Origin: Deltaproteobacteria bacterium
GTDB taxonomy: Bacteria; Myxococcota_A; UBA9160; SZUA-336
NCBI GenBank assembly: GCA_004356455.1
Contig: SMWZ01000147.1
Span: 128-64,127, forward strand
DNA length: 64,000 bases
Direction: 5' to 3'
In this document: piece by piece, positions 1,708-15,741 of the stretch
How the letters are laid out: each line of letters begins with the position of its first letter
Numbering within the stretch: position 1 is the first letter of the stretch
Position numbers and translations under genes: made by a program
Notes under the pieces: generated by a model
What the model saw: only the letters and a program-made list of their open reading frames with translations
Database searches by the model: none
Told to the model about the DNA's origin: nothing

Positions 1708-2381
1708 GCTTTCACCGGCGGGTGGCGTTTGATCGAGAGCGGGCGGTCCGGAGGCAGAAACACGCGGTCGTCGTGATCCTCGCGGATGATCTGCATCATG
1801 GGTAAAAGGATCCGTGCCAGGATCTTAACGTCGTCAAGCGCGTCGTGGCGGCGCAGACCCTCGATGTTGACCTGGAAGCGCTGGATCAGCGCGCTCGTGC
1901 TCCAGCGTCCCTCCGGCTCGCCCAAGAGTGCCGTGGCCAGCACCACCGAATCCAGTGTGGCGGGGAGGGTGGTGGGCAGGCCGTGGCGTGCCAGCTCGGT
2001 CTCGAGCAGCGGTATGTCGAACTCGAACACGCTCTGACCGATCCAGAAGGCCGAGCCCCGGGCCGCCGCCTGGCAGTCCCTCCACGCATCAGGAAAGGGA
2101 GGTGCGTCCTTCAGCTTCTCGAGCGTAATGCCGGTGAGCTCCTCGACCTCCTTCGAGATCTCGACACCCTCCCCGGGATGGACGAGCTGCACGAAGGCCT
2201 CCTCCTCGAGGATCTTACCGCCCTCGATGGGAAGGCCGGCGATCTGGGTGACACGCTCTCGCGTGGTATCCAGACCGGTGGCCTCGAGATCGTAAACCCA
2301 GATCCGCAGCGAGGAGAAGGCGCGGATCTCGAGGTCGGACACCTCGTAGAGGTCATCCGAGACGGGCTGAATGCGCAGCAT
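1704..2381 (-). CDS. DEDDh 3'-5' exonuclease (DnaQ/epsilon-like domain)
   Basis: WVYDLEATGLD (ExoI), IGQSVFEFDIPLL and HDALDDV (ExoIII) motifs. The start was trimmed to ATG 2381 (MLRIQPV), 9 nt after the upstream stop. The longer tracked N-terminus is Arg/Ala-rich and overlaps the neighbouring gene. Confidence 0.85.
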   Translation of the reverse strand: MLRIQPVSDDLYEVSDLEIRAFSSLRIWVYDLEATGLDTTRERVTQIAGLPIEGGKILEEEAFVQLVHPGEGVEISKEVEELTGITLEKLKDAPPFPDAWRDCQAAARGSAFWIGQSVFEFDIPLLETELARHGLPTTLPATLDSVVLATALLGEPEGRWSTSALIQRFQVNIEGLRRHDALDDVKILARILLPMMQIIREDHDDRVFLPPDRPLSIKRHPPVKA

Positions 2382-2389
2382 GGGGTGCG

Positions 2390-3184
2390 TCAACGGGACG
2401 CGCTCCGCTCGCGAAAGGCATCCACCAGCCTCTGGGGTCCCGCGGCCATCAGAGGCTGGAGCAGCACGTCGGCCTGATTGTAGCGGCGTGGCCCTGTGGC
2501 CAGCGTGACGAACGTACCTCCGGCCTCGCGCAGCAGCAGGTCGCCTCCGCACACGTCCCACTCGCTCTTGGGCGCGGCCGAGATCCAGAAGTCCGCCCGC
2601 CCCGCGGCCACGAGCGCGAGCTTGAGGGCCACCGAGCCCAGCGGCCGCACCTCCTTGAAGAGTTCCTTGTAGGGATCCATCTGCCCCCGGCTCAGTTCGC
2701 TGCGACTCGACAGCACGACGGCCTGATCGAGTCGTCCCACTCCCGAGACCTGGGTGGGCGCATCATCCAGGTACGTCCCCGCGCCTCGGCAGCCCCAGTA
2801 GCACTCACGCGTGAGCGGCTGGTAAACGACGCCCAGCACGGGCTCGCCGCCGAGAGCGAGGCCGATCGAGACCGCGAACTCGGGGATCCCCTGGATGAAC
2901 TCCTTGGTTCCATCCAGCGGATCGATGATCCAGAGGCGCTCGGCGTCCAGGCGTCCGGGCGCATCACGCGTCTCCTCTGACAGGATCGCGTCCTCGGGAA
3001 AGCTCTCATGCAGCACCGCGCATATGGCCTCGTTCGCCTCCAGATCGGCGCGGGTCACGGGGCTGTCCTCGGCCTTGTCCCAGCTCTCGCGGTCGGTCTG
3101 ACAGTGGCGCGCGATGATCTCGCCCGCGGCTCGAGCCGCTTTGCGGGCGGCGGCTACTTCGCGCTCGAACTCGAGCTTCATCAT
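2390..3184 (-). CDS. inositol monophosphatase family / CysQ-like 3'(2'),5'-bisphosphate nucleotidase
   Basis: Motifs SPVTRADL, LSEE, WIIDPLDGTKEF and WDVCGG are typical of the IMPase/CysQ fold. Confidence 0.85.
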   Translation of the reverse strand: MMKLEFEREVAAARKAARAAGEIIARHCQTDRESWDKAEDSPVTRADLEANEAICAVLHESFPEDAILSEETRDAPGRLDAERLWIIDPLDGTKEFIQGIPEFAVSIGLALGGEPVLGVVYQPLTRECYWGCRGAGTYLDDAPTQVSGVGRLDQAVVLSSRSELSRGQMDPYKELFKEVRPLGSVALKLALVAAGRADFWISAAPKSEWDVCGGDLLLREAGGTFVTLATGPRRYNQADVLLQPLMAAGPQRLVDAFRERSASR

Positions 3185-4920
3185 TCGCGCGAGTTCGGCC
3201 GGCTCGGACGGTTCTTAGAGCGGCGACGCCGACGGCGCAGCTTGGGCTCGCAGATGTCGCACACGCCGCAGGGGGTGGGCTCGGCGTCCTCGAAGTAGCG
3301 GCGGATCGCCATCACGTGGCACTCCTCCCCTTCCGCGTAGTTGACCATTCCGTCGAGCCGGCGGCGGTCCGTTGTGCGGCGCTCTTCGTTGCGACGACTC
3401 AGCAGCTTGACCGCGTCCTGCACCCGAAGTTCGCCTGCGAGCATGAACCCAGCATCATCGTGCGTCACCACTCCCGCTTCGCGCAGGCCCTCGAGCACGG
3501 CCTTGGTGCGTGTCACGCCGACCTCGGTCGACATGGCCAGTACCGCGGCGTCCACGGGCCGGTTGTCCGCGCTCCAGGCGGAGAGCCCGGTAACCACCTT
3601 ATGGATCTGCGAACGGCTGGCGGGACCGTCGGACAGGAAGTGGCGCTGAACCGCGAGGTCTTCGGGGTAATAGAGCAGGATGCAGCGTGCGGGCAGGCCG
3701 TCGCGTCCGCCCCGGCCCGCCTCCTGCACGTAGGCCTCGAGCGAGCCGGGGACCTGATAGTGGATCACGTAGCGGATATCGGGCTTGTCCACCCCCAGAC
3801 CGAAGGCGCTGGTCGCGATCATCACGATGCGCTTGCCCGAAGACATGAAGCGCTTGTGGGCGTGGTCGCGCTCGGACTTGGTGAGCCGTCCGTGATAGAT
3901 CTCGGCAGGAATGCGCGCCAGCTTGCACAGCGCGCCCAGGTCCTCAACCTCCTTCACCGTCGCGCAGTAAACGATTCCCGGCCGGCGCAGCCGTCGCAGG
4001 TGCTGAATCAGCTCGCGCCGCTTCATGTCCTCCGAGTCGCAGTCCACGACCTCGAAGCGCAGATTGGGCCGCGCCACCGGCCGCACCACTATTACCGCAT
4101 CGCGCAGGCCCAGGCGCTTGACGATCTCCTCACGCACCAGCGGCGGGGCGGTGGCCGTGAGCGCCAGCACGGGCGGACGTCCGAGGTCCTTCGCTAAGGC
4201 GCCGAGCGCGAGGTACGAGGGACGGAAATCATGCCCCCACTCGGATACGCAGTGCGCCTCGTCCACGACCAGCAGCGAGACGCTGTTGTCGCTCAGTCGC
4301 TGCTTGAAGCGCGACCCTGTGGCACCCTCGGGCGTGATCAGGACGATCTTCTGCTCCCCCTCCTCGAGCAGCGTGAGTGCCTCTTCGCGCTGCGTTCCCG
4401 TGAGCGAGCTGTCGAGACGCACAGTCTCGATGCCCTGCGCGCGCAGCTTCTCGAACTGATCCCGAATCAGCGCGATCAGCGGCGAGACCACCACGGTCAG
4501 GCCCGGGAGCAGCAGGCTTGGGAGCTGGTAGGTGAGCGATTTGCCGCCACCCGTGGGTAGCACCGCCAGCGTGTCGCGGGCGTCCAGAACCGCGCGCATG
4601 GTTTGCTCCTGGCCGGGTCGGAAGTGACGCAGCCCGAACTCGCGCCGCAGCAGGTCCAGCATCTGTGCGCGGCGTTGGTCCGGGACGCCGCCGCGCCGCC
4701 GGCGGCGACGGTTTCGCGAGCGGGGGCGATCCGAGGGGGCCGGGGCCGGCGTGGCTTCATTGGTCTGCGCCGGCTCACTCGCTGCCATCGGCTCTGCGTC
4801 GGCGCGCAGCTCACCCGGGTCGGACGAGTCCGACGTCATCGCCGTCTCCCCGTTAGGGGAGCGCGCTGGGTTCGGTCCGCGGCGCGGCCGCCGCCGCCTC
4901 GACCGCTTTGTTTTCGCCAT
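3181..4920 (-). CDS. recQ: RecQ-family ATP-dependent DNA helicase with Arg-rich N- and C-terminal tails
   Basis: FRPGQEQ, LPTGGGKSLTYQLP (Walker A), VVDEAHCVSEWGHDFRPSY (DEAH) and a C-terminal CGVCDIC zinc motif. Probable start is ATG 4920 (MAKTKRS). The stop overlaps the downstream start (ATGA at 3181-3184). Confidence 0.9.
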   Translation of the reverse strand: MAKTKRSRRRRPRRGPNPARSPNGETAMTSDSSDPGELRADAEPMAASEPAQTNEATPAPAPSDRPRSRNRRRRRRGGVPDQRRAQMLDLLRREFGLRHFRPGQEQTMRAVLDARDTLAVLPTGGGKSLTYQLPSLLLPGLTVVVSPLIALIRDQFEKLRAQGIETVRLDSSLTGTQREEALTLLEEGEQKIVLITPEGATGSRFKQRLSDNSVSLLVVDEAHCVSEWGHDFRPSYLALGALAKDLGRPPVLALTATAPPLVREEIVKRLGLRDAVIVVRPVARPNLRFEVVDCDSEDMKRRELIQHLRRLRRPGIVYCATVKEVEDLGALCKLARIPAEIYHGRLTKSERDHAHKRFMSSGKRIVMIATSAFGLGVDKPDIRYVIHYQVPGSLEAYVQEAGRGGRDGLPARCILLYYPEDLAVQRHFLSDGPASRSQIHKVVTGLSAWSADNRPVDAAVLAMSTEVGVTRTKAVLEGLREAGVVTHDDAGFMLAGELRVQDAVKLLSRRNEERRTTDRRRLDGMVNYAEGEECHVMAIRRYFEDAEPTPCGVCDICEPKLRRRRRRSKNRPSRPNSRE

Positions 4921-7029: not shown

Positions 7030-7839
7030 TCAGGAGGCGCAGTCGTCGGACGGAGGCCAGTGGAGCAGGACGTGGGCGTAGCGGCTCGAATCCAGGTCGG
7101 CGTGGCTGCGGTCGAAGTAATCCTGCCAGAAGCCACTGATCTGTCTGGCCATCTCCGCCGACTCCGCCGTCACCGCCGACACGTAGACGCATACGCCGGA
7201 GAGGTCGGGGATCAGGCCCTTTAGCTGCAGCTCTGCCAGCAGCTCCTGCTTCTTCTCCGGGGTCCAGGAAATCCGGTCAAAGCGATAGGGCGGATAGTCG
7301 ACGATCATGTCCGACATCAGGATCAGAATCTTGCGTCGCTCCGTGGCTTGGAAGAGCTTCTTGGCCATGAGCAGCGAGCTGAAGATGTCGGTCTTGTTGC
7401 TGGAGCCAGCCTTCAGCAGCATCTCCGGCAGCTGGGCTCGGATCTTCTCCCTGAGCTCGTCTGCCTTCCTCTCGCTCGCCTTCAGCTCGCGTTCGTGGCG
7501 CATGGTGTTGTCCAGCCATCTGTTGAACTCGGGCTGCGGCGGAAAGGTCTCATCCAGCAGAGCATGGAAGCTCGTGAGGGTCTCCTCGTTGATGGGGGCG
7601 ACCAGGATGCGATCTCCGGCCGCGAGCGAGGGGATGATCGTGTCTGCGAAGTCATGCTCGATCAGGGCCCGATTCTCGGCGCCCATGCTCCCCGAGAAGT
7701 CCACGAAGATGATGATCTCGTTGCCAACATTCCTCGTGGACTCCGCGGACACGAAGCAGCCCGTCAGGAGAGCCCCTGCCAGCGCCAGCACGGAAACGCC
7801 GGCTACGAGCTGCTTGAGCGCAAGGGACGTGGACGTCAT
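7030..7839 (-). CDS. vWA-domain lipoprotein with complete MIDAS motif
   Basis: Signal peptide plus lipobox (ALLTGC). IIIFVDFSGSM (DxSxS), NKTDIF (Thr) and LILMSDMIVD (Asp). The start overlaps the upstream stop (ATGA at 7836-7839). Confidence 0.7.
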   Translation of the reverse strand: MTSTSLALKQLVAGVSVLALAGALLTGCFVSAESTRNVGNEIIIFVDFSGSMGAENRALIEHDFADTIIPSLAAGDRILVAPINEETLTSFHALLDETFPPQPEFNRWLDNTMRHERELKASERKADELREKIRAQLPEMLLKAGSSNKTDIFSSLLMAKKLFQATERRKILILMSDMIVDYPPYRFDRISWTPEKKQELLAELQLKGLIPDLSGVCVYVSAVTAESAEMARQISGFWQDYFDRSHADLDSSRYAHVLLHWPPSDDCAS

Positions 7840-8849
7840 CCGCTTGACTGACTCCCGGAGCTGATGTCGACCTCAGGCCACCACTCCAGCGACTTGTACT
7901 CCGGATCCTTCCTGAAGGCGGGCGGCGGCAAGAAGCTGCGGAAGCGCACGTTGGTGCTGCGGTACAGGGCGATGCGTTGACTGGAGAGCGCTCTCGCCCG
8001 CTCAATCCGGCTCTTCGCTCCCTGGATCTCCCCGTTGAGCTTGGTTCCGAGCAGCAAGCGCTGCTTGCGAACCTTGTTGGCGTGCTTATCCAGGAACATG
8101 AGGGAGCTGTGGCTGGAGTCCAGCTTCTCGTCCTGATCATGGGACAGGTAGGAGCTCACCGTCGCTGCGCAGAACACCAGGGCGTTGAGAGCGAAGAGGG
8201 CGTAAGCCAATCCGTCCGCGCTCGCCAACATGGGATCTGCCCCGGTGGCCGCTTGAGCCTCGATATAGCCCTGGCGCATGCTGCTGATCGCAATCAGGGC
8301 CGCAGCCGCAGAAACTGGAGTGATGAATCCGACCACGATGTTTCCGGCTCTTGGCGGAACCGACTGCCTCAGGTGAATGCCGATGAAGAGCCCGAGCAGG
8401 GGGATGGTGATGGCGAGGGTGGATGCCATGATATAGGTCAGGAATTCCGACTCGCCGAAGAGCCGGAACACGATGGTGTTCAGGGGGAATTCGCCGATCG
8501 CCAGGAAGATGATCAGCGCCACGTGATACTTGTAAGGGAATCGACTGTTGAAGTCCCGCCCCAGCTCGGCTTTTCTCGCCTTGTAGATCTTGCCCGCCGC
8601 CTGAAGGCGGCTCTCGAGATCGTTGTAGCGTCCCTGATAGGCCTCGTAGAACGGGCGCAGCTTGGCGATCCGCAGCGAGGCTTTCTCGTAGATCAGCTGG
8701 ACTGCCTGCTCCCCGTGGGCGACCAAGGCCTGCTCGAACTGGGCCGGCTGGTACGACCCCATGTCGGGGATATTCTTCTCGCCGTCCATCTGGCCTTCGA
8801 GCTCGATCCGGCGCTCGTTGGTGAACGGACTGGAGCCCTTTCCGAACAT
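7836..8849 (-). CDS. hypothetical 4-TM membrane protein with N- and C-terminal coiled-coil-like segments
   Basis: Four hydrophobic helices (about aa 110-235) are flanked by heptad-like charged regions. I recognise no family. Confidence 0.6.
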   Translation of the reverse strand: MFGKGSSPFTNERRIELEGQMDGEKNIPDMGSYQPAQFEQALVAHGEQAVQLIYEKASLRIAKLRPFYEAYQGRYNDLESRLQAAGKIYKARKAELGRDFNSRFPYKYHVALIIFLAIGEFPLNTIVFRLFGESEFLTYIMASTLAITIPLLGLFIGIHLRQSVPPRAGNIVVGFITPVSAAAALIAISSMRQGYIEAQAATGADPMLASADGLAYALFALNALVFCAATVSSYLSHDQDEKLDSSHSSLMFLDKHANKVRKQRLLLGTKLNGEIQGAKSRIERARALSSQRIALYRSTNVRFRSFLPPPAFRKDPEYKSLEWWPEVDISSGSQSSG

Positions 8850-9421: not shown

Positions 9422-10462
9422 CTACTGGCGGATGTCGGTGAGGATGCCGACGTCGCGCCAGCTCTGCTCGGTGCGCTCGGTGATCAGGCCCAGGCGCATC
9501 AGGTTCGGCACGACAGTGTGCATGTAGGCCTCGCTGTTGAGTTCGGTCCAGTTGGGGAGCTTGTGCGCGGTGCGCAGCAGCTCGTCGGGATCGATGTCGT
9601 ACTTGGGCCCCAGCGTCTGGAGCATGTCGAGCTGCTGATTCGCGTTCAGGGCTTCTAGTACAGCGAAGGCCCAGTCCTCCATCTGGTGCATCTTCTCCTC
9701 GCTCGCTTCGCGCACGCAGCGTCGCATGGTCAGGACGCCAAAGGCGGCGTGACGCGACTCGTCCTGCTCGACGCGTTTGAGGATCTCTCTGAACAGCGGG
9801 TTGAGCGTGTTCGAGCGCATGAAATCCATGATGCCAACGGCTATGCCCTCGAAGATCGTTTGCATCCCCAGGCACTTCATGTGGTAGCCCTTGACGCTCA
9901 GCAGCTCGTCCAGCAGGGTCTTCAAGGTTGCGCCGATGGGGTAGATCGTTCCCATCTTGCTGCTCAGGAAACGCGCAAACACCTCGTTGTGGCGCGCCTC
10001 ATCGTAGACCTGGTTGGAGGCGTACCACTTCTCGTCGGTCGTGGGGCAGAGGTTGGTAAGCTGGCCGCAGAGCTGCAGCGCCGCCTGCTCGCCGTGCAGC
10101 AGCTGCGAGATCACATAGCAGACCTCGTCGAACACGGCGGCCTTCTGCGTTGCCTCGTCCTTGCCCAGCATGCGGCAGGCGCTGCCGAGCAGGGTTGCTT
10201 CCGGTCGCATCAGCCAATCGTCTTTGGAGACGGGCGTATCCCAGTCGAGATCGGTCGCGGCGTTCCACTGGTGCTGCTTGCCCTTCTCGTAGAGTGCGCG
10301 CAGCTCCGCTACCTCGCTCCCGTACTCCCACTGCCAGTTGACGTTCGTGGCAGCGTCCACCTCCAGGTGATTGCGCAGACGCTCGATCTCGTCGGTATCG
10401 ACGAAATCGATCAGCTCGAATCCATCCAGCATGCGACGGTGGTCCGGGATCAGCTTCTCCAT
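9422..10462 (-). CDS. ferritin-like di-iron carboxylate protein (AurF/diiron-oxygenase-like)
   Basis: Two E...ExxH pairs: HGEQAAL / DEARHNEVF and FEGIAVG / QDESRHAAFG. Start ATG 10462 has an AGGGAGG RBS. It lies 13 nt downstream of the tetR stop. Confidence 0.7.
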   Translation of the reverse strand: MEKLIPDHRRMLDGFELIDFVDTDEIERLRNHLEVDAATNVNWQWEYGSEVAELRALYEKGKQHQWNAATDLDWDTPVSKDDWLMRPEATLLGSACRMLGKDEATQKAAVFDEVCYVISQLLHGEQAALQLCGQLTNLCPTTDEKWYASNQVYDEARHNEVFARFLSSKMGTIYPIGATLKTLLDELLSVKGYHMKCLGMQTIFEGIAVGIMDFMRSNTLNPLFREILKRVEQDESRHAAFGVLTMRRCVREASEEKMHQMEDWAFAVLEALNANQQLDMLQTLGPKYDIDPDELLRTAHKLPNWTELNSEAYMHTVVPNLMRLGLITERTEQSWRDVGILTDIRQ

Positions 10463-10475
10463 CGGAAAGACCTCC

Positions 10476-11129
10476 CTAGGCGGGCTCGGCCGCGAGCCCA
10501 TGCTCGAGAAACAGAAAGATGTGCTGTTTGCGACGGCGTACCTCCGCCGCTGAGTACACGGGGTGCTGGAGCAGGTCATCTCCAAACTCCCCCGACGCGA
10601 AGTGGTAGACGCTCATGCCGATCAGCGTCTGAAGCGTGTGCGGCACCGAGACGGGGCGGATCTCGCCCGCTGCAATGCCCTCCTTCAGCGCGCGCGCCAC
10701 GCGACTCAGTATGCGTTCCAGGATTCCGTTCAGATGCGCCCGGTCCTTGCGGTCGACCACGTCGCCCTCGAACAGCGTCCGCAGAAGCAGCGGTGCGTAG
10801 GTGGGGTTCTCGGCCAGGGTATCGACCACCACGTCCACCCAGTTCCGGAGCTTCGCCAGTGCCGACTCGGGGCGCTCTTGTACGGCCTCGAGGCGCTCAT
10901 CCATCCGCGTCAGGATGCGCTCGAGCACCGCCACATAGAGCGAGAGCTTGGTGGGAAAGTGGTGGAAGAGGGAGGACTTTCCCAGCCCGACCTTTTGGGC
11001 CACCTCGCGCAGGCCGACGCCGCTGAAGCCGCGGGCCGCAAACAGCGCCTCGGCGCTGTCGAGGATCTTCGCGCGGCTCGAGGGACCGGCCTTGGTCACG
11101 GGCTTGGGGGTGGGATTGTCAGCGCTCAT
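10476..11129 (-). CDS. TetR/AcrR-family transcriptional regulator
   Basis: N-terminal HTH: ILDSAEALFAARGFSGVGLREVAQKVGLGKSSLFHHFPTK. Confidence 0.9.
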   Translation of the reverse strand: MSADNPTPKPVTKAGPSSRAKILDSAEALFAARGFSGVGLREVAQKVGLGKSSLFHHFPTKLSLYVAVLERILTRMDERLEAVQERPESALAKLRNWVDVVVDTLAENPTYAPLLLRTLFEGDVVDRKDRAHLNGILERILSRVARALKEGIAAGEIRPVSVPHTLQTLIGMSVYHFASGEFGDDLLQHPVYSAAEVRRRKQHIFLFLEHGLAAEPA

Positions 11130-11146
11130 GCGGGCCCTCGGACCGA

Positions 11147-11158
11147 CCGACCGGTCGG
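11147..11158. promoter_or_regulatory. perfect 12-bp palindrome CCGACCGGTCGG, candidate TetR operator
   Basis: Located 18 nt upstream of the tetR start (11129), in the 105-bp divergent intergenic region shared with the AAA+ operon. Confidence 0.4.
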
Positions 11159-11234
11159 ACGGGAAGCTTATCGGCTGCGTTTTCTGAGGTCAAGCGCCGG
11201 CTGGGCCTGCTTCCGGTATGCTCCGCGCCGCCCC

Positions 11235-13034
11235 ATGACAGAGAAAGCCATCTCCGCCCTGGCCGCCGCGCTGGACCGCGCGCTGGTGGGGCAGGAGGAC
11301 GCCAAGACCGGCGTGCTGCTGGCCCTGCTTGCGCGCGAGCACGCCTACCTCGAGGGCCCGCCGGGAGTGGGGAAGTCCCGGCTGGCCGAAGCCGGCGTGC
11401 ACGCCGCCAGCGGGTCGCCGATCCAGCTCGCCCTGCACCGCGACACGCGGCTCCAGGACCTGGTGGGGCCCGTGCAGCTGCGGCGCGAGCCTTACGGGGA
11501 AGGGCAACGCCTGCGGCACCAGACCTTGCCGGGACCGCTGCTAGGGGCGGAGCTGGTGCTGCTGGATGATCTCGATCGGGCCCCGGCGCAGGCGCTGGGT
11601 CCGCTGCTCCGCATCCTTGGCGAGCGCTGCTGGCAGGGTCAGGCGTTGCCCCTCGAGTCCGTCATCGCTACCGGGGGGCCCGAGCGGATCGACGCCTATG
11701 CGGATCCACTCGAGCCCGGCTCACTCGATCGCTTCGCGATTCAGGTGCGCATGCCAGGCTTACTCTACGCGCAGCGCTGGGACTGCGCGCGCGTGCTGCT
11801 CGAGGGGAGGGTGGAGCTCTCGCCGGGACCGGTCATCGACCTCTGTACACGCAGACGGCTGCAGGAGCAGGCGCGGCGCTTACCGATGCCGCGCTCGGTC
11901 CAGCGGGCATACGTGGACCTGGTGCTACGGCTGCAACGGTTTGCGGCCGGCGGCATGCCTCTCAGTGATCGGACCTTCGGCCGTGCCGCGCTGCGCGTGC
12001 TGCGGGCGCACGCGCTGCTGCGCGGTGCCTCGCGGGTGGAGCGCACGGATCTGCGCGCGCTGCGCTACATGCTCGGGCGCCGCCTGCCCGACCTGACCCG
12101 CGACCAGTTTGAGGAGCTGCTGGCGGAGGCCGGGCGACCCGCCGCGCCATGGCTGGGGCCTTCCGCCGCCGCTGCGGGTGCGGCCTGGGGCGCGGCCGGC
12201 GCGGCCGGCGCCGAGGCCATCCGGGCCCGCGCGGGCCGGGTGCGCAGCTGGGAGCTCCAGCCGGGCGCGCGCGCTCCGGGGATGGACGAGGCGCAGGTGG
12301 AGCGGGTGCTGCGTGCGCTCGAGGGACGCTTCGAGCGTGGCTACGCGGGCCTGGAGGAGGATCCCGGGGGCTCGCCCCGCAGCTATCGGACACTGCGCGG
12401 GCTGGACGAGGTCTTCGATGCCGACCCGGTCGAGCTGATCGGCTACCTGGACGGGACGCGCCCCGGCCTGCCGCGCAGCTTCCGCCGCGAGCGCAGACGG
12501 GCGGGCGGCCAGGTCGCGCTCCTGCGTGACGTCTCGGCTTCGATGGAGGGAAGGCTCGGCCGCTGGGCGGGGCGGGTGGTCGCGGGCCTGGTGCGTGCCG
12601 GGGCGCGCCGACGCATGCGCATCGGCTACGTAGAGTTTAATCACGATGCCCGCCGCTTTCACGCCGGCGGGCGCTTCTTTCATCGCCGCTACACCAGCCT
12701 GCTCGAGCTGGCCGCGTCCTCGCGGGCGGCCGGGCGCACCAGCTACCAGGCGCCACTCCAGGTTGCGCTGAACGAGTTCCGCGCACGCGCCGGGCGCAAC
12801 CGACACATTGTGCTGTTGACGGACGGGGTGCCGGTGCTGGGCGACCCCGAGGTGCGGCGCGAGCGCACGCTGGCGCGGCGCCTGGGCGTGCAGGTGCACA
12901 CCGTGTTCCTGGGCTTGGGCGAGCACCCGCCCGTGCTGGACGCGATCGCACGCGAGACGGGAGGGCTCTGCTTCGTCGGGCAACCCAGGCCCGGCGGCGG
13001 CTTGCGGGTGCTCGGGCTGGGCGAGGGAACATGA
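11235..13034 (+). CDS. MoxR-like AAA+ domain fused to a C-terminal vWA domain (BchD-like architecture)
   Basis: GPPGVGKS Walker A, LLDDLDRAP Walker B (DD rather than DE), an Ala/Gly-rich linker, then a vWA domain with DVSASM (DxSxS), GRTSY and LLTDG. True start is ATG 11235. The tracked ORF from 10563 is antisense to tetR. Confidence 0.8.
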   Translation: MTEKAISALAAALDRALVGQEDAKTGVLLALLAREHAYLEGPPGVGKSRLAEAGVHAASGSPIQLALHRDTRLQDLVGPVQLRREPYGEGQRLRHQTLPGPLLGAELVLLDDLDRAPAQALGPLLRILGERCWQGQALPLESVIATGGPERIDAYADPLEPGSLDRFAIQVRMPGLLYAQRWDCARVLLEGRVELSPGPVIDLCTRRRLQEQARRLPMPRSVQRAYVDLVLRLQRFAAGGMPLSDRTFGRAALRVLRAHALLRGASRVERTDLRALRYMLGRRLPDLTRDQFEELLAEAGRPAAPWLGPSAAAAGAAWGAAGAAGAEAIRARAGRVRSWELQPGARAPGMDEAQVERVLRALEGRFERGYAGLEEDPGGSPRSYRTLRGLDEVFDADPVELIGYLDGTRPGLPRSFRRERRRAGGQVALLRDVSASMEGRLGRWAGRVVAGLVRAGARRRMRIGYVEFNHDARRFHAGGRFFHRRYTSLLELAASSRAAGRTSYQAPLQVALNEFRARAGRNRHIVLLTDGVPVLGDPEVRRERTLARRLGVQVHTVFLGLGEHPPVLDAIARETGGLCFVGQPRPGGGLRVLGLGEGT

Positions 13035-13996
13035 ACGCGGGGCTCGAGGGTCTACGAAAAGTTCTCGACGAGCACGTCGTGGGGCACGAGGAGGTGAAGC
13101 AAGCGCTGCTGCTCGGCCTGGCCTGTCGCGAACACATCTATCTGGAGGGACCTCCCGGCAGCGCCAAGACGCGCATGGCGGAGGTGGTCGCACGCAGCTC
13201 GAGCCTAAGCTTCTTCTTCTATCAGCTCCACCGGGATACGCGCCTGGCCGAGTTGCTGGGCGATGTGGTCCTCGAGCGCCGGCCGTTGGCCGAGGGCGAA
13301 GGAGAACGCATCCATCAACGCATCGAGCCCGGCGGTATCCTGACGGCGGAGATCTGTGTCCTGGATGACATCTCGCGCGCGCCCGGCGAGGCGCTCAACG
13401 TGCTGCTGAGGATCCTCAACGAGCGAAAGTTCGGCGCCGATTCGATTCCCCTCCTCAGCGCCATCGCCACCAGCAACCCCATGCGCGATGAGTACTACAA
13501 CGAGCCCCTGGACCCTGCGAATCTCGACCGCTTCGCGCTGCAGCTGCGGGTGCCGGGCTTGATCCAGTCGGGCGCGAAGGAGGAGGCGCGTGCCCTGGTG
13601 AGCCGCTTTGCAGCCGGTACGGTGGTCGAGCAACCCGAGCTCCGAGCGGTGGCCAGCCGCCGGACCTTCGACGACCTCTACGCCACGCTCCGCAGGGTTC
13701 AGGTTCCGAGCGAGGTCAAGGAAGGCCTGCTGGAGATCTTGCAAGTGCTCGTGGTCGAGTATGGTTGCAATGAGACGAACTCGCTGCTCACCGATCGCAG
13801 CTTTCTGGTGAAGGCGGTCAAGCTGCTGCAGGGTCGCGCGGCGCTCGCGGGTCGGGAGCGGGTGGAGCTGGCGGACCTGGACGTGCTGCGTTGGATGACG
13901 ACCTTCCGCGTCGCGGAGGAGGTCCACGAGAAGGTTCCCGAGCTGATTGCCCGCGTGGTCGGGAGTGCCGGTGCGCGCCCTGCCCGCGACAGCTAA
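13031..13996 (+). CDS. MoxR-family AAA+ ATPase, paralogous to the N-terminal half of 11235-13034
   Basis: GPPGSAKT Walker [10 protein letters not shown] Walker [11 protein letters not shown] sensor region. It aligns block by block with the upstream gene. ATGA start/stop overlap at 13031-13034. Confidence 0.85.
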
Positions 13997-14009
13997 CATC
14001 GCGCGCGTC

Positions 14010-14429
14010 GTGGAGCGGACTCTGTCCATCATCAAGCCCGAGGTGGTTGCGCGAAACCAGATCGGGGCGATTCTGCAGCACGTCGAGCAAACGGGGCTGC
14101 GGATCGTGGCGACGCGCATGCTCCAGCTGGATCGCCGCCAGGCCGAGGGCTTCTACGACGTGCACCGCGAGCGGCCTTTCTTCCAGAGCCTGGTCCAGTT
14201 CATGACATCCGGTCCCGTCGTGGTCAGCGTGCTCGAAGGCGACGACGCGATCGCGCGCTATCGCAAGCTCATGGGGGCCACAGACCCGGAGCAGGCCGAT
14301 GCGGGCACCCTGCGCAAGCTCTTCGGAACGAACGTGGAGCACAACGCTGTCCATGGCTCGGACGCCCCTGACACTGCCCGCACCGAGGTCGCCTACTTCT
14401 TCGGCGAAGCCGACCTCGTCCCCCGCTAG
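14010..14429 (+). CDS. ndk: nucleoside-diphosphate kinase
   Basis: [21 protein letters not shown] and NAVHGSD motifs. Start set at GTG 14010 to match the usual [11 protein letters not shown]-terminus. Confidence 0.92.
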
Positions 14430-14466
14430 CGCCCAAGGCCCAAAGGCAAGCCCCACTAACGCCATC

Positions 14467-14540
14467 CAAGGCACGCACGAAGTCGCGTGCCGCGCGCGCA
14501 GGCCGGCTTGCCGGCCGATAACGCGCTAGTAACGCGCTAG
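14467..14540 (-). repeat. single inverted copy of the double-hairpin intergenic element (same family as 62622-62790), with an 11-bp TAACGCGCTAG duplication
   Basis: The reverse complement reads TAGCGCGTTA-TC-GGCCGG-CAAG-CCGGCC-TGCGCGCGC-GGCACGC(G)AC-TTC-GTGCGTGCC. Order and linkers match the 64-bp unit at 62.6 kb, but both stems carry different, compensating sequences. Confidence 0.75.
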
Positions 14541-14730
14541 GAGTAAGCCCCGGCGATGAGCACCATCAGGGCCAGGTAGGTCGCAACCAGGAGCAGGCTG
14601 CGGCGCAGCGACGGACGCCTCGTGTCTGAATCTACTGCTTCCCTCATGTCCCCCCCTTCGGCTAACACCCACTGGAGCTATAGCGCGTTGTGATGGAATG
14701 CGCCCTATCGGAGGCGAGAAAGTTGTCGCG

Positions 14731-15741
14731 TTAGCCTGAAGCCTCGGCGAACACGCGTTCGAGGTGGTCGGCCCCGCGCGCGATGGCCCACCAGAAGAAC
14801 GGAAAGAACTGGTAATGCCCGAGCGGCAGATGAATCCAGCGCGGCTCGCCCAGTGCGTGCCAGAGCGCACGCGTGTGCCGGGGACGGACCACGCGATCCA
14901 GGCGTCCGGATGCGATCAGCACGGTCCGGGGGTCGGTCCGGGCCGCGTAGGTGAGCGGGTCGACGATCTCCACGAAGGGGCGCAGGTACTCCAGAAAGGC
15001 CTCTCTTGTCTCGAGCGTGTGCTGTGTCTGAAGCCGCTCGCGGAAGATGCGTACGGGCCGTTCGGAGGAGTCGTACAGGATCTCGGGCAGCCCTCCGCCG
15101 ACCATCAGGAAGAAGCCGGCGTGGACCCGGGGATCGACCTGCATCAGGGTGAGCGCCAGCATGCCGCCCAGACTGACCCCGGCCGCGGCTACGCGCTCGG
15201 GGTCGAGCTGTGGATGGTTGAGTAGCCAGTCGAGCAGCCGGCGTGCATCCAGGATTGCGCTGCGGAAGTGCCGCGCCGGAACCTCGGCTCCTGGGGCCTG
15301 GTCCAGCTCGAGGTCGTGACGCTCCATGCGCGCCACGGCGAAGCGCCGCTTGACCAGCGCCTTGGCCAGCCCCTCCGAGACCACGTGGGAGCCCGCCAGG
15401 ATTGGGAACACGACCACTACCGGGTGGGGGCCGGGACCGGGCGGGATCAACAGGTGCGCGGTGGCCTCATCCCCCTGGCTACCCGGGTAGAGAATCCGGA
15501 AGGCGCGATAGTCGCGCGCGTGGAACAGGGTGTAGAGATCCAGGATCCAGTTCTGCTCGACCGTCCGACCTTCGGGCTGGACACGGACCTGCGAGAGATC
15601 CAGCGGCGCGGGCTCGAGCTCGGGAACCGGCTCGGGGGGCCGAGGGACCCGCTCGGGCTGCGGCTGCCACGAAGTGGTGGTGCAGGCTAGGCAAACGAGG
15701 AGCGCCGCGCCGAGAGCGCACCAGCGCTCCCCGTTTACCAC
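14731..15741 (-). CDS. alpha/beta-hydrolase lipoprotein
   Basis: Lipobox LVCLAC, nucleophile elbow GVSLGG, GTG start 19 nt downstream of the ftsZ stop. Confidence 0.8.
   Translation of the reverse strand: MVNGERWCALGAALLVCLACTTTSWQPQPERVPRPPEPVPELEPAPLDLSQVRVQPEGRTVEQNWILDLYTLFHARDYRAFRILYPGSQGDEATAHLLIPPGPGPHPVVVVFPILAGSHVVSEGLAKALVKRRFAVARMERHDLELDQAPGAEVPARHFRSAILDARRLLDWLLNHPQLDPERVAAAGVSLGGMLALTLMQVDPRVHAGFFLMVGGGLPEILYDSSERPVRIFRERLQTQHTLETREAFLEYLRPFVEIVDPLTYAARTDPRTVLIASGRLDRVVRPRHTRALWHALGEPRWIHLPLGHYQFFPFFWWAIARGADHLERVFAEASG

Follow-up and report, generated by a model that had tools for sequence, protein, structure and literature searches.

The window analysed here is a stretch of 64,000 nucleotides from a Deltaproteobacteria bacterium (Myxococcota_A; UBA9160; SZUA-336; assembly GCA_004356455.1, contig SMWZ01000147.1, positions 128 to 64,127). 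It carries two adjacent genes, hereafter gene 1 and gene 2, that encode paralogous MoxR-type AAA+ modules in which the Walker B motif ends in Asp-Asp (DD). [quoted passage not shown] We propose, with a probability of about 0.6 for this reading and the mechanism attached to it below, that the two products are subunits of one MoxR-class AAA+/vWA remodelling machine of BchI/BchD-like build, in which gene 2 would be the conserved ATP-driven motor and gene 1 a duplicated copy of it that has kept Walker A and a trans-acting Arg finger and lost sensor-1.

Two paralogous AAA+ modules with a DD Walker B motif

The AAA+ module of gene 1, its first 300 residues, and gene 2 can be aligned over 306 residues with 39% identity (E 1e-59), and all the blocks that the initial annotation had matched between the two modules are present in this alignment, which shows the modules to be paralogous. 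Pfam finds AAA_5 in both proteins (62 and 40 bits, cut-off 22) and AAA_lid_8 in gene 1, and the nearest structures in the PDB, both in HMMER sequence searches and in a Foldseek search with the gene 1 model, are MoxR 2r44 and RavA. An AAA_5/AAA_3 core, an AAA lid, MoxR and RavA as nearest structures and the association with a vWA/MIDAS domain thus place the pair among the MoxR proteins. The AlphaFold2 (AF2) model of the gene 1 monomer (mean predicted local distance difference test score, pLDDT, of 83.5) has a confident vWA fold and drops below a pLDDT of 50 at residues 305-332 and 364-373 of the linker, which is also the least conserved region of the protein (column conservation 0.55; ratio of nonsynonymous to synonymous substitution rates, dN/dS, 0.57). 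Pfam, the AF2 model and the invariant MIDAS residues (Table 1) agree on the order of AAA+ module, Ala/Gly linker and MIDAS-complete vWA domain that had been read from the sequence, and the coordinates, frames and ATGA overlap of the two genes are also as first annotated.

Neither gene carries the canonical hhhhDE Walker B of the MoxR family. The DD in both genes had been noted initially, with the proviso that it might be an artefact of alignment, and it is genuine: HMMER lays 'vlDDisrap' on 'laDEvnRsP' of MoxR 2r44 and on 'flDEiwka' of RavA, residues D111-D112 close strand 107-111 in the AF2 model of gene 1, and DD is fixed in both families (120/120 for gene 2, and 105 and 108 of 116 at the two positions for gene 1). 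The hhhhDD form is typical of switch-like STAND NTPases. Moreover, the sensor-1 Asn has been lost in the gene 1 family, which the initial annotation had not recorded. Gene 2 homologues are 70-90% identical and gene 1 homologues 45-67%, and mean column conservation is 0.63 in the gene 1 AAA+ module against 0.84 in gene 2. Because the conservation of the motifs differs between the two families in this way, gene 2 looks like a fully equipped motor, with Asp as the catalytic base, and the gene 1 module looks like a nucleotide-binding, Arg-finger-donating and catalytically weakened copy. Gene 1 is the faster-evolving, partly degenerate copy, a difference in the same direction as that of BchD relative to BchI.

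A DD clade of MoxR proteins

An exhaustive search of 1.84 billion representatives yielded 120 proteins with an E value below 1e-30. Of the 139 best-ranked representatives (50% clustering), 106 have DD in Walker B and 2 have DE, and many clade members are single polypeptides of 570-1000 aa in the order AAA+, linker, vWA; a check on the spread of the fused form and the DD motif had been proposed initially, and DD is clade-wide and the fused form frequent. In their AAA+ modules the fused members share 50-57% identity with gene 2, more than the module of gene 1 does (39%). In a maximum-likelihood tree the DD clade stands apart from the canonical DE MoxR proteins of the same genome (100 in the Shimodaira-Hasegawa-like approximate likelihood ratio test, SH-aLRT), and the gene 2 group is monophyletic (SH-aLRT 100) and nested among fused AAA-vWA forms. 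Of the phylogeny called for initially, against MoxR subfamilies and BchI/BchD, it is the split from the canonical forms that has been obtained, with the genome's own MoxR proteins as references. Of the seven MoxR subfamilies reportedly distinguished by Snider and Houry, our comparison covered MRP, RavA and APE2220 (CoxD). Walker B hhhhDD marks, by these alignments and the tree, an uncharacterised MoxR clade that includes both genes; a search of the literature found no description of a fused MoxR-vWA/DD subfamily, and what is new here is an undescribed DD subfamily of the known MoxR/vWA kind.

Within a phylum sample of 401 genomes, 19 have a match, concentrated in the window's own family (13/15 genomes) and in one other. 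Homologues of both proteins are numerous, and those with a source name are labelled as metagenome-assembled genomes of Myxococcota, Myxococcales or Deltaproteobacteria. A scan of the genome collection with gene 1 alone gave two loci, a single-protein query of this kind reaching close relatives only. On plasmids, tblastn with gene 2 found only canonical MRP/Bat-operon MoxR genes, at no more than 31% identity, and the DD clade is absent there.

Protist relatives of the gene 2 clade (P0259, P0257 and P0287), from Hondaea fermentalgiana (GBG30265.1, 'ATPase ravA'), MMETSP transcripts and the diplonemid Namystynia, are about 50% identical, fused to vWA and DD in Walker B. In P0257 the AAA+ match begins at residue 56, and the N-terminal extension could be an organelle-targeting sequence; an origin of the protist forms by transfer is possible.

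Slip site or second gene

Two relatives of the pair have a run of A residues where gene 1 passes from motor to linker. In the fused gene of L038 an A10 run sits precisely where the AAA part meets the linker (L038:8926-8935), and in L039 an A9 run (L039:1222-1230) lies between 'split' AAA and vWA open reading frames (ORFs) which, with one A added, fuse into a product of 643 aa collinear with gene 1. The vWA motifs of L039 and gene 1 are closely matched (PRIFRRTRQERGGRMAIIRDISQSM against PRSFRRERRRAGGQVALLRDVSASM; VEFNH is common to both). The length of the run toggles the in-frame product, which suggests slippage at this site during transcription or translation. For 'magnesium chelatase' genes, poly-A frameshifting with an ATPase and an ATPase fusion as its products has been demonstrated experimentally (Antonov et al., 2013; PMC3711429).

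A metagenome scan gave 80 loci (L054-L133), 68 of them with both AAA and vWA parts. An A9-A12 run stands at the junction, with no second AAA+ gene, in 53 loci (43 in frame, 10 frame-shifted; GC 0.37-0.61); the run is absent and a second AAA+ gene lies directly downstream in 11 (GC 0.60-0.70); four, on short contigs and possibly eukaryotic, have neither (GC 0.53-0.67); and none has both. Fisher's exact test gives p = 9e-10 for this contrast, over loci that are not independent. Since slip site and second gene never occur together, the clade appears to need both a motor-only and a motor-vWA chain, and gene 2 would stand in, as a separate gene, for the short product of slippage; within positions 11235-13996 of the window there is no A-run of at least 5, the longest homopolymer being G6. 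Pairs are of two kinds: in one (L043, L100-L109) the fused copy keeps the sensor-1 Asn, and in the other (gene 1 of the window, L121, L124) it is without it.

These loci also bear on whether the two proteins might act separately, gene 1 as a self-sufficient homo-oligomer and gene 2 as an independent MoxR chaperone with a client of its own, which we consider rather unlikely. Such independence would suit the four in-frame fusion loci with neither A-run nor second AAA gene, the eukaryotic homologues, which are single fused proteins, and the retention by gene 1 of Walker A, DD, Arg finger and sensor 2. It does not, however, suit the finding that slip site and second gene exclude each other (53 against 11, with both in none), nor the conserved adjacency and coupling: the fused gene directly precedes the stand-alone one in 14/14 genome loci with both on one fetched stretch, with an NTGA overlap in 9 of 15 related loci and a spacing of -16 to +12 nt in the remainder. 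Moreover, the loss of sensor-1 in gene 1 beside a column conservation of about 84% in gene 2 is what is expected if one partner carries catalysis.

Comparison with known systems

The layout likened initially to BchD/BchI, with a vWA partner that has its own copy of the motor, holds by Pfam, alignment, motifs and AF2. As in Mg-chelatase (BchI/BchD or ChlI/ChlD), there is a motor and a paralogous degenerate motor, with a flexible linker and a MIDAS vWA domain; moreover, some prokaryotes make the short and long forms of the chelatase by poly-A frameshifting (PMC3711429), and relatives of the pair carry a slip site. The proteins differ, however, in that PF01078 covers residues 15-53 only (about 40 aa; 22 and 17 bits), the BchI and BchD NCBIfam models are unmatched at E <= 0.1, BchI is outside the top 50 Foldseek results for gene 1, Walker B is DD and not DE, and the linker is Ala/Gly-rich and not acidic/Pro-rich. 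Neither BchH/ChlH nor tetrapyrrole genes were found in the window or the fetched loci, a genome-wide search for BchH not having been made. We regard the resemblance to Mg-chelatase as architectural and probably convergent, and the pair as lying outside that family. The poly-A slip-site AAA+/vWA genes share the two-product logic, and clade relatives have A9-A12 at the junction; the window differs from them in having no slip site, its short product coming from a separate, diverged gene.

NorQ/NorD, CbbQ/CbbO and RavA/ViaA likewise combine a hexameric motor of the MoxR fold with a vWA adaptor that has a MIDAS; the adaptor tethers the client, which is remodelled or receives a metal (PMC9976466, PMC3893208). 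In contrast to gene 1, their vWA partner has no AAA+ module, and their Walker B is DE. The NCBIfam RavA equivalog, with its cut-off of 681 bits, gives 50.5 (gene 2) and 30 bits, and gene 2, of 321 aa, stops behind the lid and is without the C-terminal LARA domain of RavA.

CoxD and CoxE of Oligotropha (Afipia) carboxidovorans are again an AAA+ and a vWA protein encoded in a CoxSLM-type operon, and mature the metal centre of the CoxSLM enzyme (PMC3471820, PMC4240915); CoxD belongs to the APE2220 subfamily (PMC3471820, PMC3893208). Orthology of the pair with CoxD/CoxE was rejected on the scores: against the proteins of pHCG3 (NC_015689) BLASTP gives E 0.48 and 0.54 and hhalign a probability of 0.9%, and VWA_CoxE scores 288 bits for CoxE and 17.1 for gene 1, with a cut-off of 26.4. 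Further differences are that Walker B of CoxD reads VLLIDE, that the pair lies upstream and not downstream of coxSLM, with its vWA domain fused to a motor copy, that an XdhC/CoxF gene is not adjacent to it, and that the enzyme is of form II (AYRGAGR) and not form I (AYRCSFR). Because similarity is undetectable, the pair would thus be a non-orthologous analogue of CoxD/CoxE. Scores far below membership for RavA and CoxD/CoxE set the pair outside these characterised subfamilies, a position within one of which had been named as grounds for abandoning the initial proposal. By analogy, the pair may work like BchI/BchD in its subunit logic, with a likely task such as that of NorQ/NorD, CbbQ/CbbO and CoxD/CoxE.

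Ternary conflict systems of bpMoxR and vWA proteins have reportedly been described by Kaur et al. in 2020, and the best Pfam match of both our proteins is indeed PF20030, bpMoxR (E 7e-20 and 1e-12). That the pair is the core of such a MoxR-vWA conflict or defence system is nonetheless very improbable. Since PF20030 also matches ordinary MoxR proteins in 12/14 control genomes, besides three canonical ones in this genome, it is not specific to conflict systems; a third component (beta-propeller, VMAP or iSTAND) or an effector was not found near the pair; PADLOC returned P-loop-only IetA matches, none of them relevant; and the genomic context is metabolic and housekeeping. On the first three of these grounds a defence-system identity was rejected. 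The three other PF20030-matching MoxR genes of the genome lie at C61:21308-21841, C35:4511-5035 and C51:3136-3657, and the two that were translated, those of C61 and C35, read ILADEINRAP, a canonical DE.

Association with a form II CO dehydrogenase-like operon

In relatives, the pair is followed directly, on the same strand, by coxS (2Fe-2S), coxL (MoCoBD), coxM (FAD), coxG, mocA (MobA-like cytidylyltransferase) and ndk. The order gene 1-gene 2-coxS-L-M(-G-mocA) is contiguous in nine fetched loci, and AYRGAGR, the signature of form II carbon monoxide dehydrogenase (CODH)-like enzymes, stands in each of the nine adjacent CoxL proteins, where CoxL of O. carboxidovorans has AYRCSFR. An orthologous CoxL is present in 13 of the 18 pair-bearing genomes and adjoins the pair in 12, and the two family members without the pair lack it. 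The conserved neighbours that had been suggested as a guide to clients were thus found in part: the cox operon is such a neighbour in 12/18 related genomes, but across the wider DD clade no neighbour is shared in 84 loci.

The window and the genome it comes from are without cox genes. Where L023 holds coxS-L-M-G-mocA (L023:10746-15522, about 4.8 kb) the window has 13 nt, and a deletion series leads from the full operon through gene 1-gene 2-coxG-mocA (L029) and gene 1-gene 2-mocA-ndk (L026, L001) to gene 1-gene 2-ndk (the window, L036, L032). In the window's genome (89.8% complete), tblastn found no homologue of coxS, coxL, coxM, coxG or mocA, and profile searches found no MoCoBD_1 protein; G118 (96% complete) and G388 gave the same result, and all three genomes keep molybdenum cofactor synthesis genes (MoeA). 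The cox genes thus appear to have been lost from the window's genome by deletion. Relative to L036, which is close and has the same cox-less order, gene 1 has a dN/dS of 0.31 and gene 2 one of 0.18, with 0.35 for a neighbouring hydrolase, all values coming from one close pair with small dS (0.08-0.15). By these ratios the pair is still under purifying selection in a cox-less genome, and, with the cox genes gone and the pair kept and constrained, it would have to serve something else.

If, instead, the pair were a CoxD/CoxE-type maturation factor for the form II Mo hydroxylase only, it would be a functionless, decaying leftover in this genome. Its contiguity with coxSLMG-mocA in 12/18 genomes, the graded cox deletions from L029 through L026 and L001 to the window, and a gene 1 that is seemingly split across two frames in the close relative L037 would all be in line with such decay. 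We find it improbable, however, because both ORFs are intact with all family-invariant residues present, because their dN/dS is not worse than that of the neighbouring hydrolase, because the pair is kept in three separate genera without any MoCoBD_1 protein, and because, in the wider clade, cox neighbours are absent from most loci.

In L037 (a contig of GCA_044233465.1), gene 1 matches as two overlapping pieces in different frames, 1971-3452 and 3350-3766, and the gene (1971-3766) is called as a truncated product of 511 aa. The tetR region of the same locus (1211-1861) is called as two short genes, of 118 and 83 aa, with TetR_N in one only. The split genes are either an assembly error or decay.

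The divergent tetR and AurF-like genes

A tetR gene and a gene for an AurF-family di-iron protein lie divergently upstream of the pair (Table 1). The spacer between tetR and gene 1 contains a putative TetR-type operator with the palindrome CCGACCGGTCGG at 11147-11158. tetR is syntenic in L023, L024, L027, L028 and L037; the operator block GACCGACCGACCGGTCGGACGGGA(A)GCTTA is common to the window, L023, L024, L036 and L037, and L027 keeps the operator core through GACGGG, the flanking proteins being merely 50-65% identical in the more distant operator-bearing loci. This conserved, predicted operator would link the pair to the AurF-like gene. An AurF-like orthologue is present in 11 of the 18 pair-bearing genomes, including all three without any xanthine-oxidase-family enzyme, and is absent from two pair-less family members. 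NorQ/NorD is a precedent for a MoxR/vWA pair that inserts non-haem iron (PMC9976466). Possibly, then, the AurF-like di-iron protein is the remaining co-regulated client in this genome, an assignment that we put forward as the best candidate and consider doubtful.

A model for a two-subunit machine

In the model that we favour, the tight translational coupling would deliver both chains together, and gene 1 would join or stack on a gene 2 ring, giving a limited number of vWA arms per ring. The Arg finger of gene 1 would complete the neighbouring gene 2 active site, and its own site would bind nucleotide with slow turnover; with Asp as catalytic base, hydrolysis may be slow or partner-dependent. 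The vWA/MIDAS domain, on its disordered linker, would grip the client, the MIDAS holding an acidic residue of it, and ATP-driven movements would open the client for the insertion or repair of a metal or cofactor. The hetero-oligomer, the slow Asp-based hydrolysis and the client are what we infer here. Low-GC members of the clade would obtain both products from one gene through the A9-A12 slip site, and GC-rich members from a second gene. In the ancestral state the pair stood at the head of an operon, under TetR control, for a form II CODH-like Mo hydroxylase (coxSLMG and mocA), whose maturation or reactivation it probably carried out.

Several points weigh against this reading. The interaction between the products of gene 1 and gene 2 is deduced indirectly, from the genes. 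In the tree, the gene 1 clade is sister to all other members and not to gene 2 (SH-aLRT 89), which leaves the timing of the duplication unfixed, and because of the faster rate of gene 1 its position may be distorted by long-branch effects. The contrast between slip site and second gene draws on loci from no more than about five lineages, and these loci also correlate with GC, so that the effective sample is small and the Fisher p value overstates the independent evidence. At 89.8% completeness the cox locus could sit in the missing part of the window's genome (yet G118, at 96%, is also without it), the estimate of selection comes from a single comparison, and a neighbour shared across the wider clade, which might have named the client, is lacking. 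In addition, G318 and G138 bear the pair but neither a CoxL nor an AurF-like orthologue.

A more ambitious version is one that we offer tentatively, as a possibility short of even odds. In it, the DD machine would be an obligate two-product one, its subunit ratio set by poly-A slippage in low-GC members or by a duplicated, sub-functionalised gene in GC-rich ones; it would be an independent re-invention of ChlI/ChlD and, in Myxococcota, a maturation or reactivation factor of form II enzymes that also moonlights on a di-iron oxygenase.

Few AAA+ machines are as little understood as the MoxR/vWA systems, for which the number of vWA adaptors per motor ring is unsettled. A clade with a slip site or a second gene, and never both, in which both chains would thus be needed, offers natural constructs for the study of stoichiometry, and its fixed replacement of Glu by Asp in Walker B is a variation of the catalytic base made by nature. 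Through the link to the operon, a specific candidate accessory factor can be named for the form II CODH-like enzymes, for which neither substrate nor maturation is settled, and the cox-less carriers suggest at least one other client for the machine.

Coordinates and neighbouring features

Table 1. Features of the locus, in window coordinates. Conservation is given as the number of homologues with the residue, among 116 for gene 1 and 120 for gene 2.
Feature	Position	Strand	Basis or conservation
AurF-family di-iron protein	9422..10462	-	Pfam AurF, 54 bits; predicted to be co-transcribed with tetR
Divergent TetR-family regulator	10476..11129	-	Pfam TetR_N, E 7e-14
Putative TetR-type operator, tetR/gene 1 spacer	11140..11170	.	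palindrome (see text)
Gene 1, MoxR AAA+/linker/vWA fusion	11235..13034	+	599 aa; translation; Pfam AAA_5, bpMoxR, AAA_lid_8, VWA
Gene 1 AAA+ module, aa 1-300	11235..12134	+	motif positions, family frequencies
Gene 1 Walker A, GPPGVGKS	11355-11378	+	K47, 113/116
Gene 1 Walker B, LVLLDD	11553-11570	+	D and D, 105 and 108 of 116
Gene 1 sensor-1 position, GG	11673-11678	+	Asn lost; A/G/S at 147-148 in the family
Gene 1 Arg finger, R166 (LDRF)	11730-11732	+	106/116
Gene 1 sensor-2 (DR)			115/116
Gene 1 Ala/Gly-rich linker, aa 301-374	12135..12356	+	low pLDDT, low conservation
Gene 1 vWA domain, complete MIDAS	12357..13031	+	Pfam VWA, E 9.5e-6
Gene 1 MIDAS DVSAS, D432-x-S434-x-S436	12528-12542	+	invariant, 116/116
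Gene 1 MIDAS T502	12738-12740	+	invariant, 116/116
Gene 1 MIDAS D530	12822-12824	+	invariant, 116/116
ATGA start/stop overlap, gene 1/gene 2	13031..13034	+	reads gaacATGAacg; translational coupling predicted from sequence
Gene 2, stand-alone MoxR AAA+ (putative motor)	13031..13996	+	321 aa; Pfam AAA_5, AAA_3, bpMoxR
Gene 2 Walker A, GPPGSAKT	13148-13171	+	K46 and T47, each 120/120
Gene 2 Walker B, ICVLDD	13352-13369	+	LDD 120/120; D112, D113
Gene 2 sensor-1, N149	13475-13477	+	120/120
Gene 2 Arg finger, R167 (LDRF)	13529-13531	+	120/120
Gene 2 sensor-2, R256 (DR)	13796-13798	+	120/120
Spacer of 13 nt, gene 2 TAA to ndk	13997..14009	+	site of the coxS-coxL-coxM-coxG-mocA block in relatives
ndk	14010..14429	+	GTG start at 14010

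The ndk gene starts at the distance from the gene 2 stop codon that had been annotated; it also follows the operon in L023-L028, L030, L032, L036 and L001, and is probably co-transcribed with the pair. A promoter and terminator scan of 11000-14750 gave no signal above shuffled controls.

In L026, where tetR was not found, a small SCP2-like ORF (MAETPKNLDEV...; 7576-7914) lies directly upstream of gene 1. The same ORF is found directly upstream of gene 1 in L028, in the spacer (7444-8004) between tetR and gene 1.

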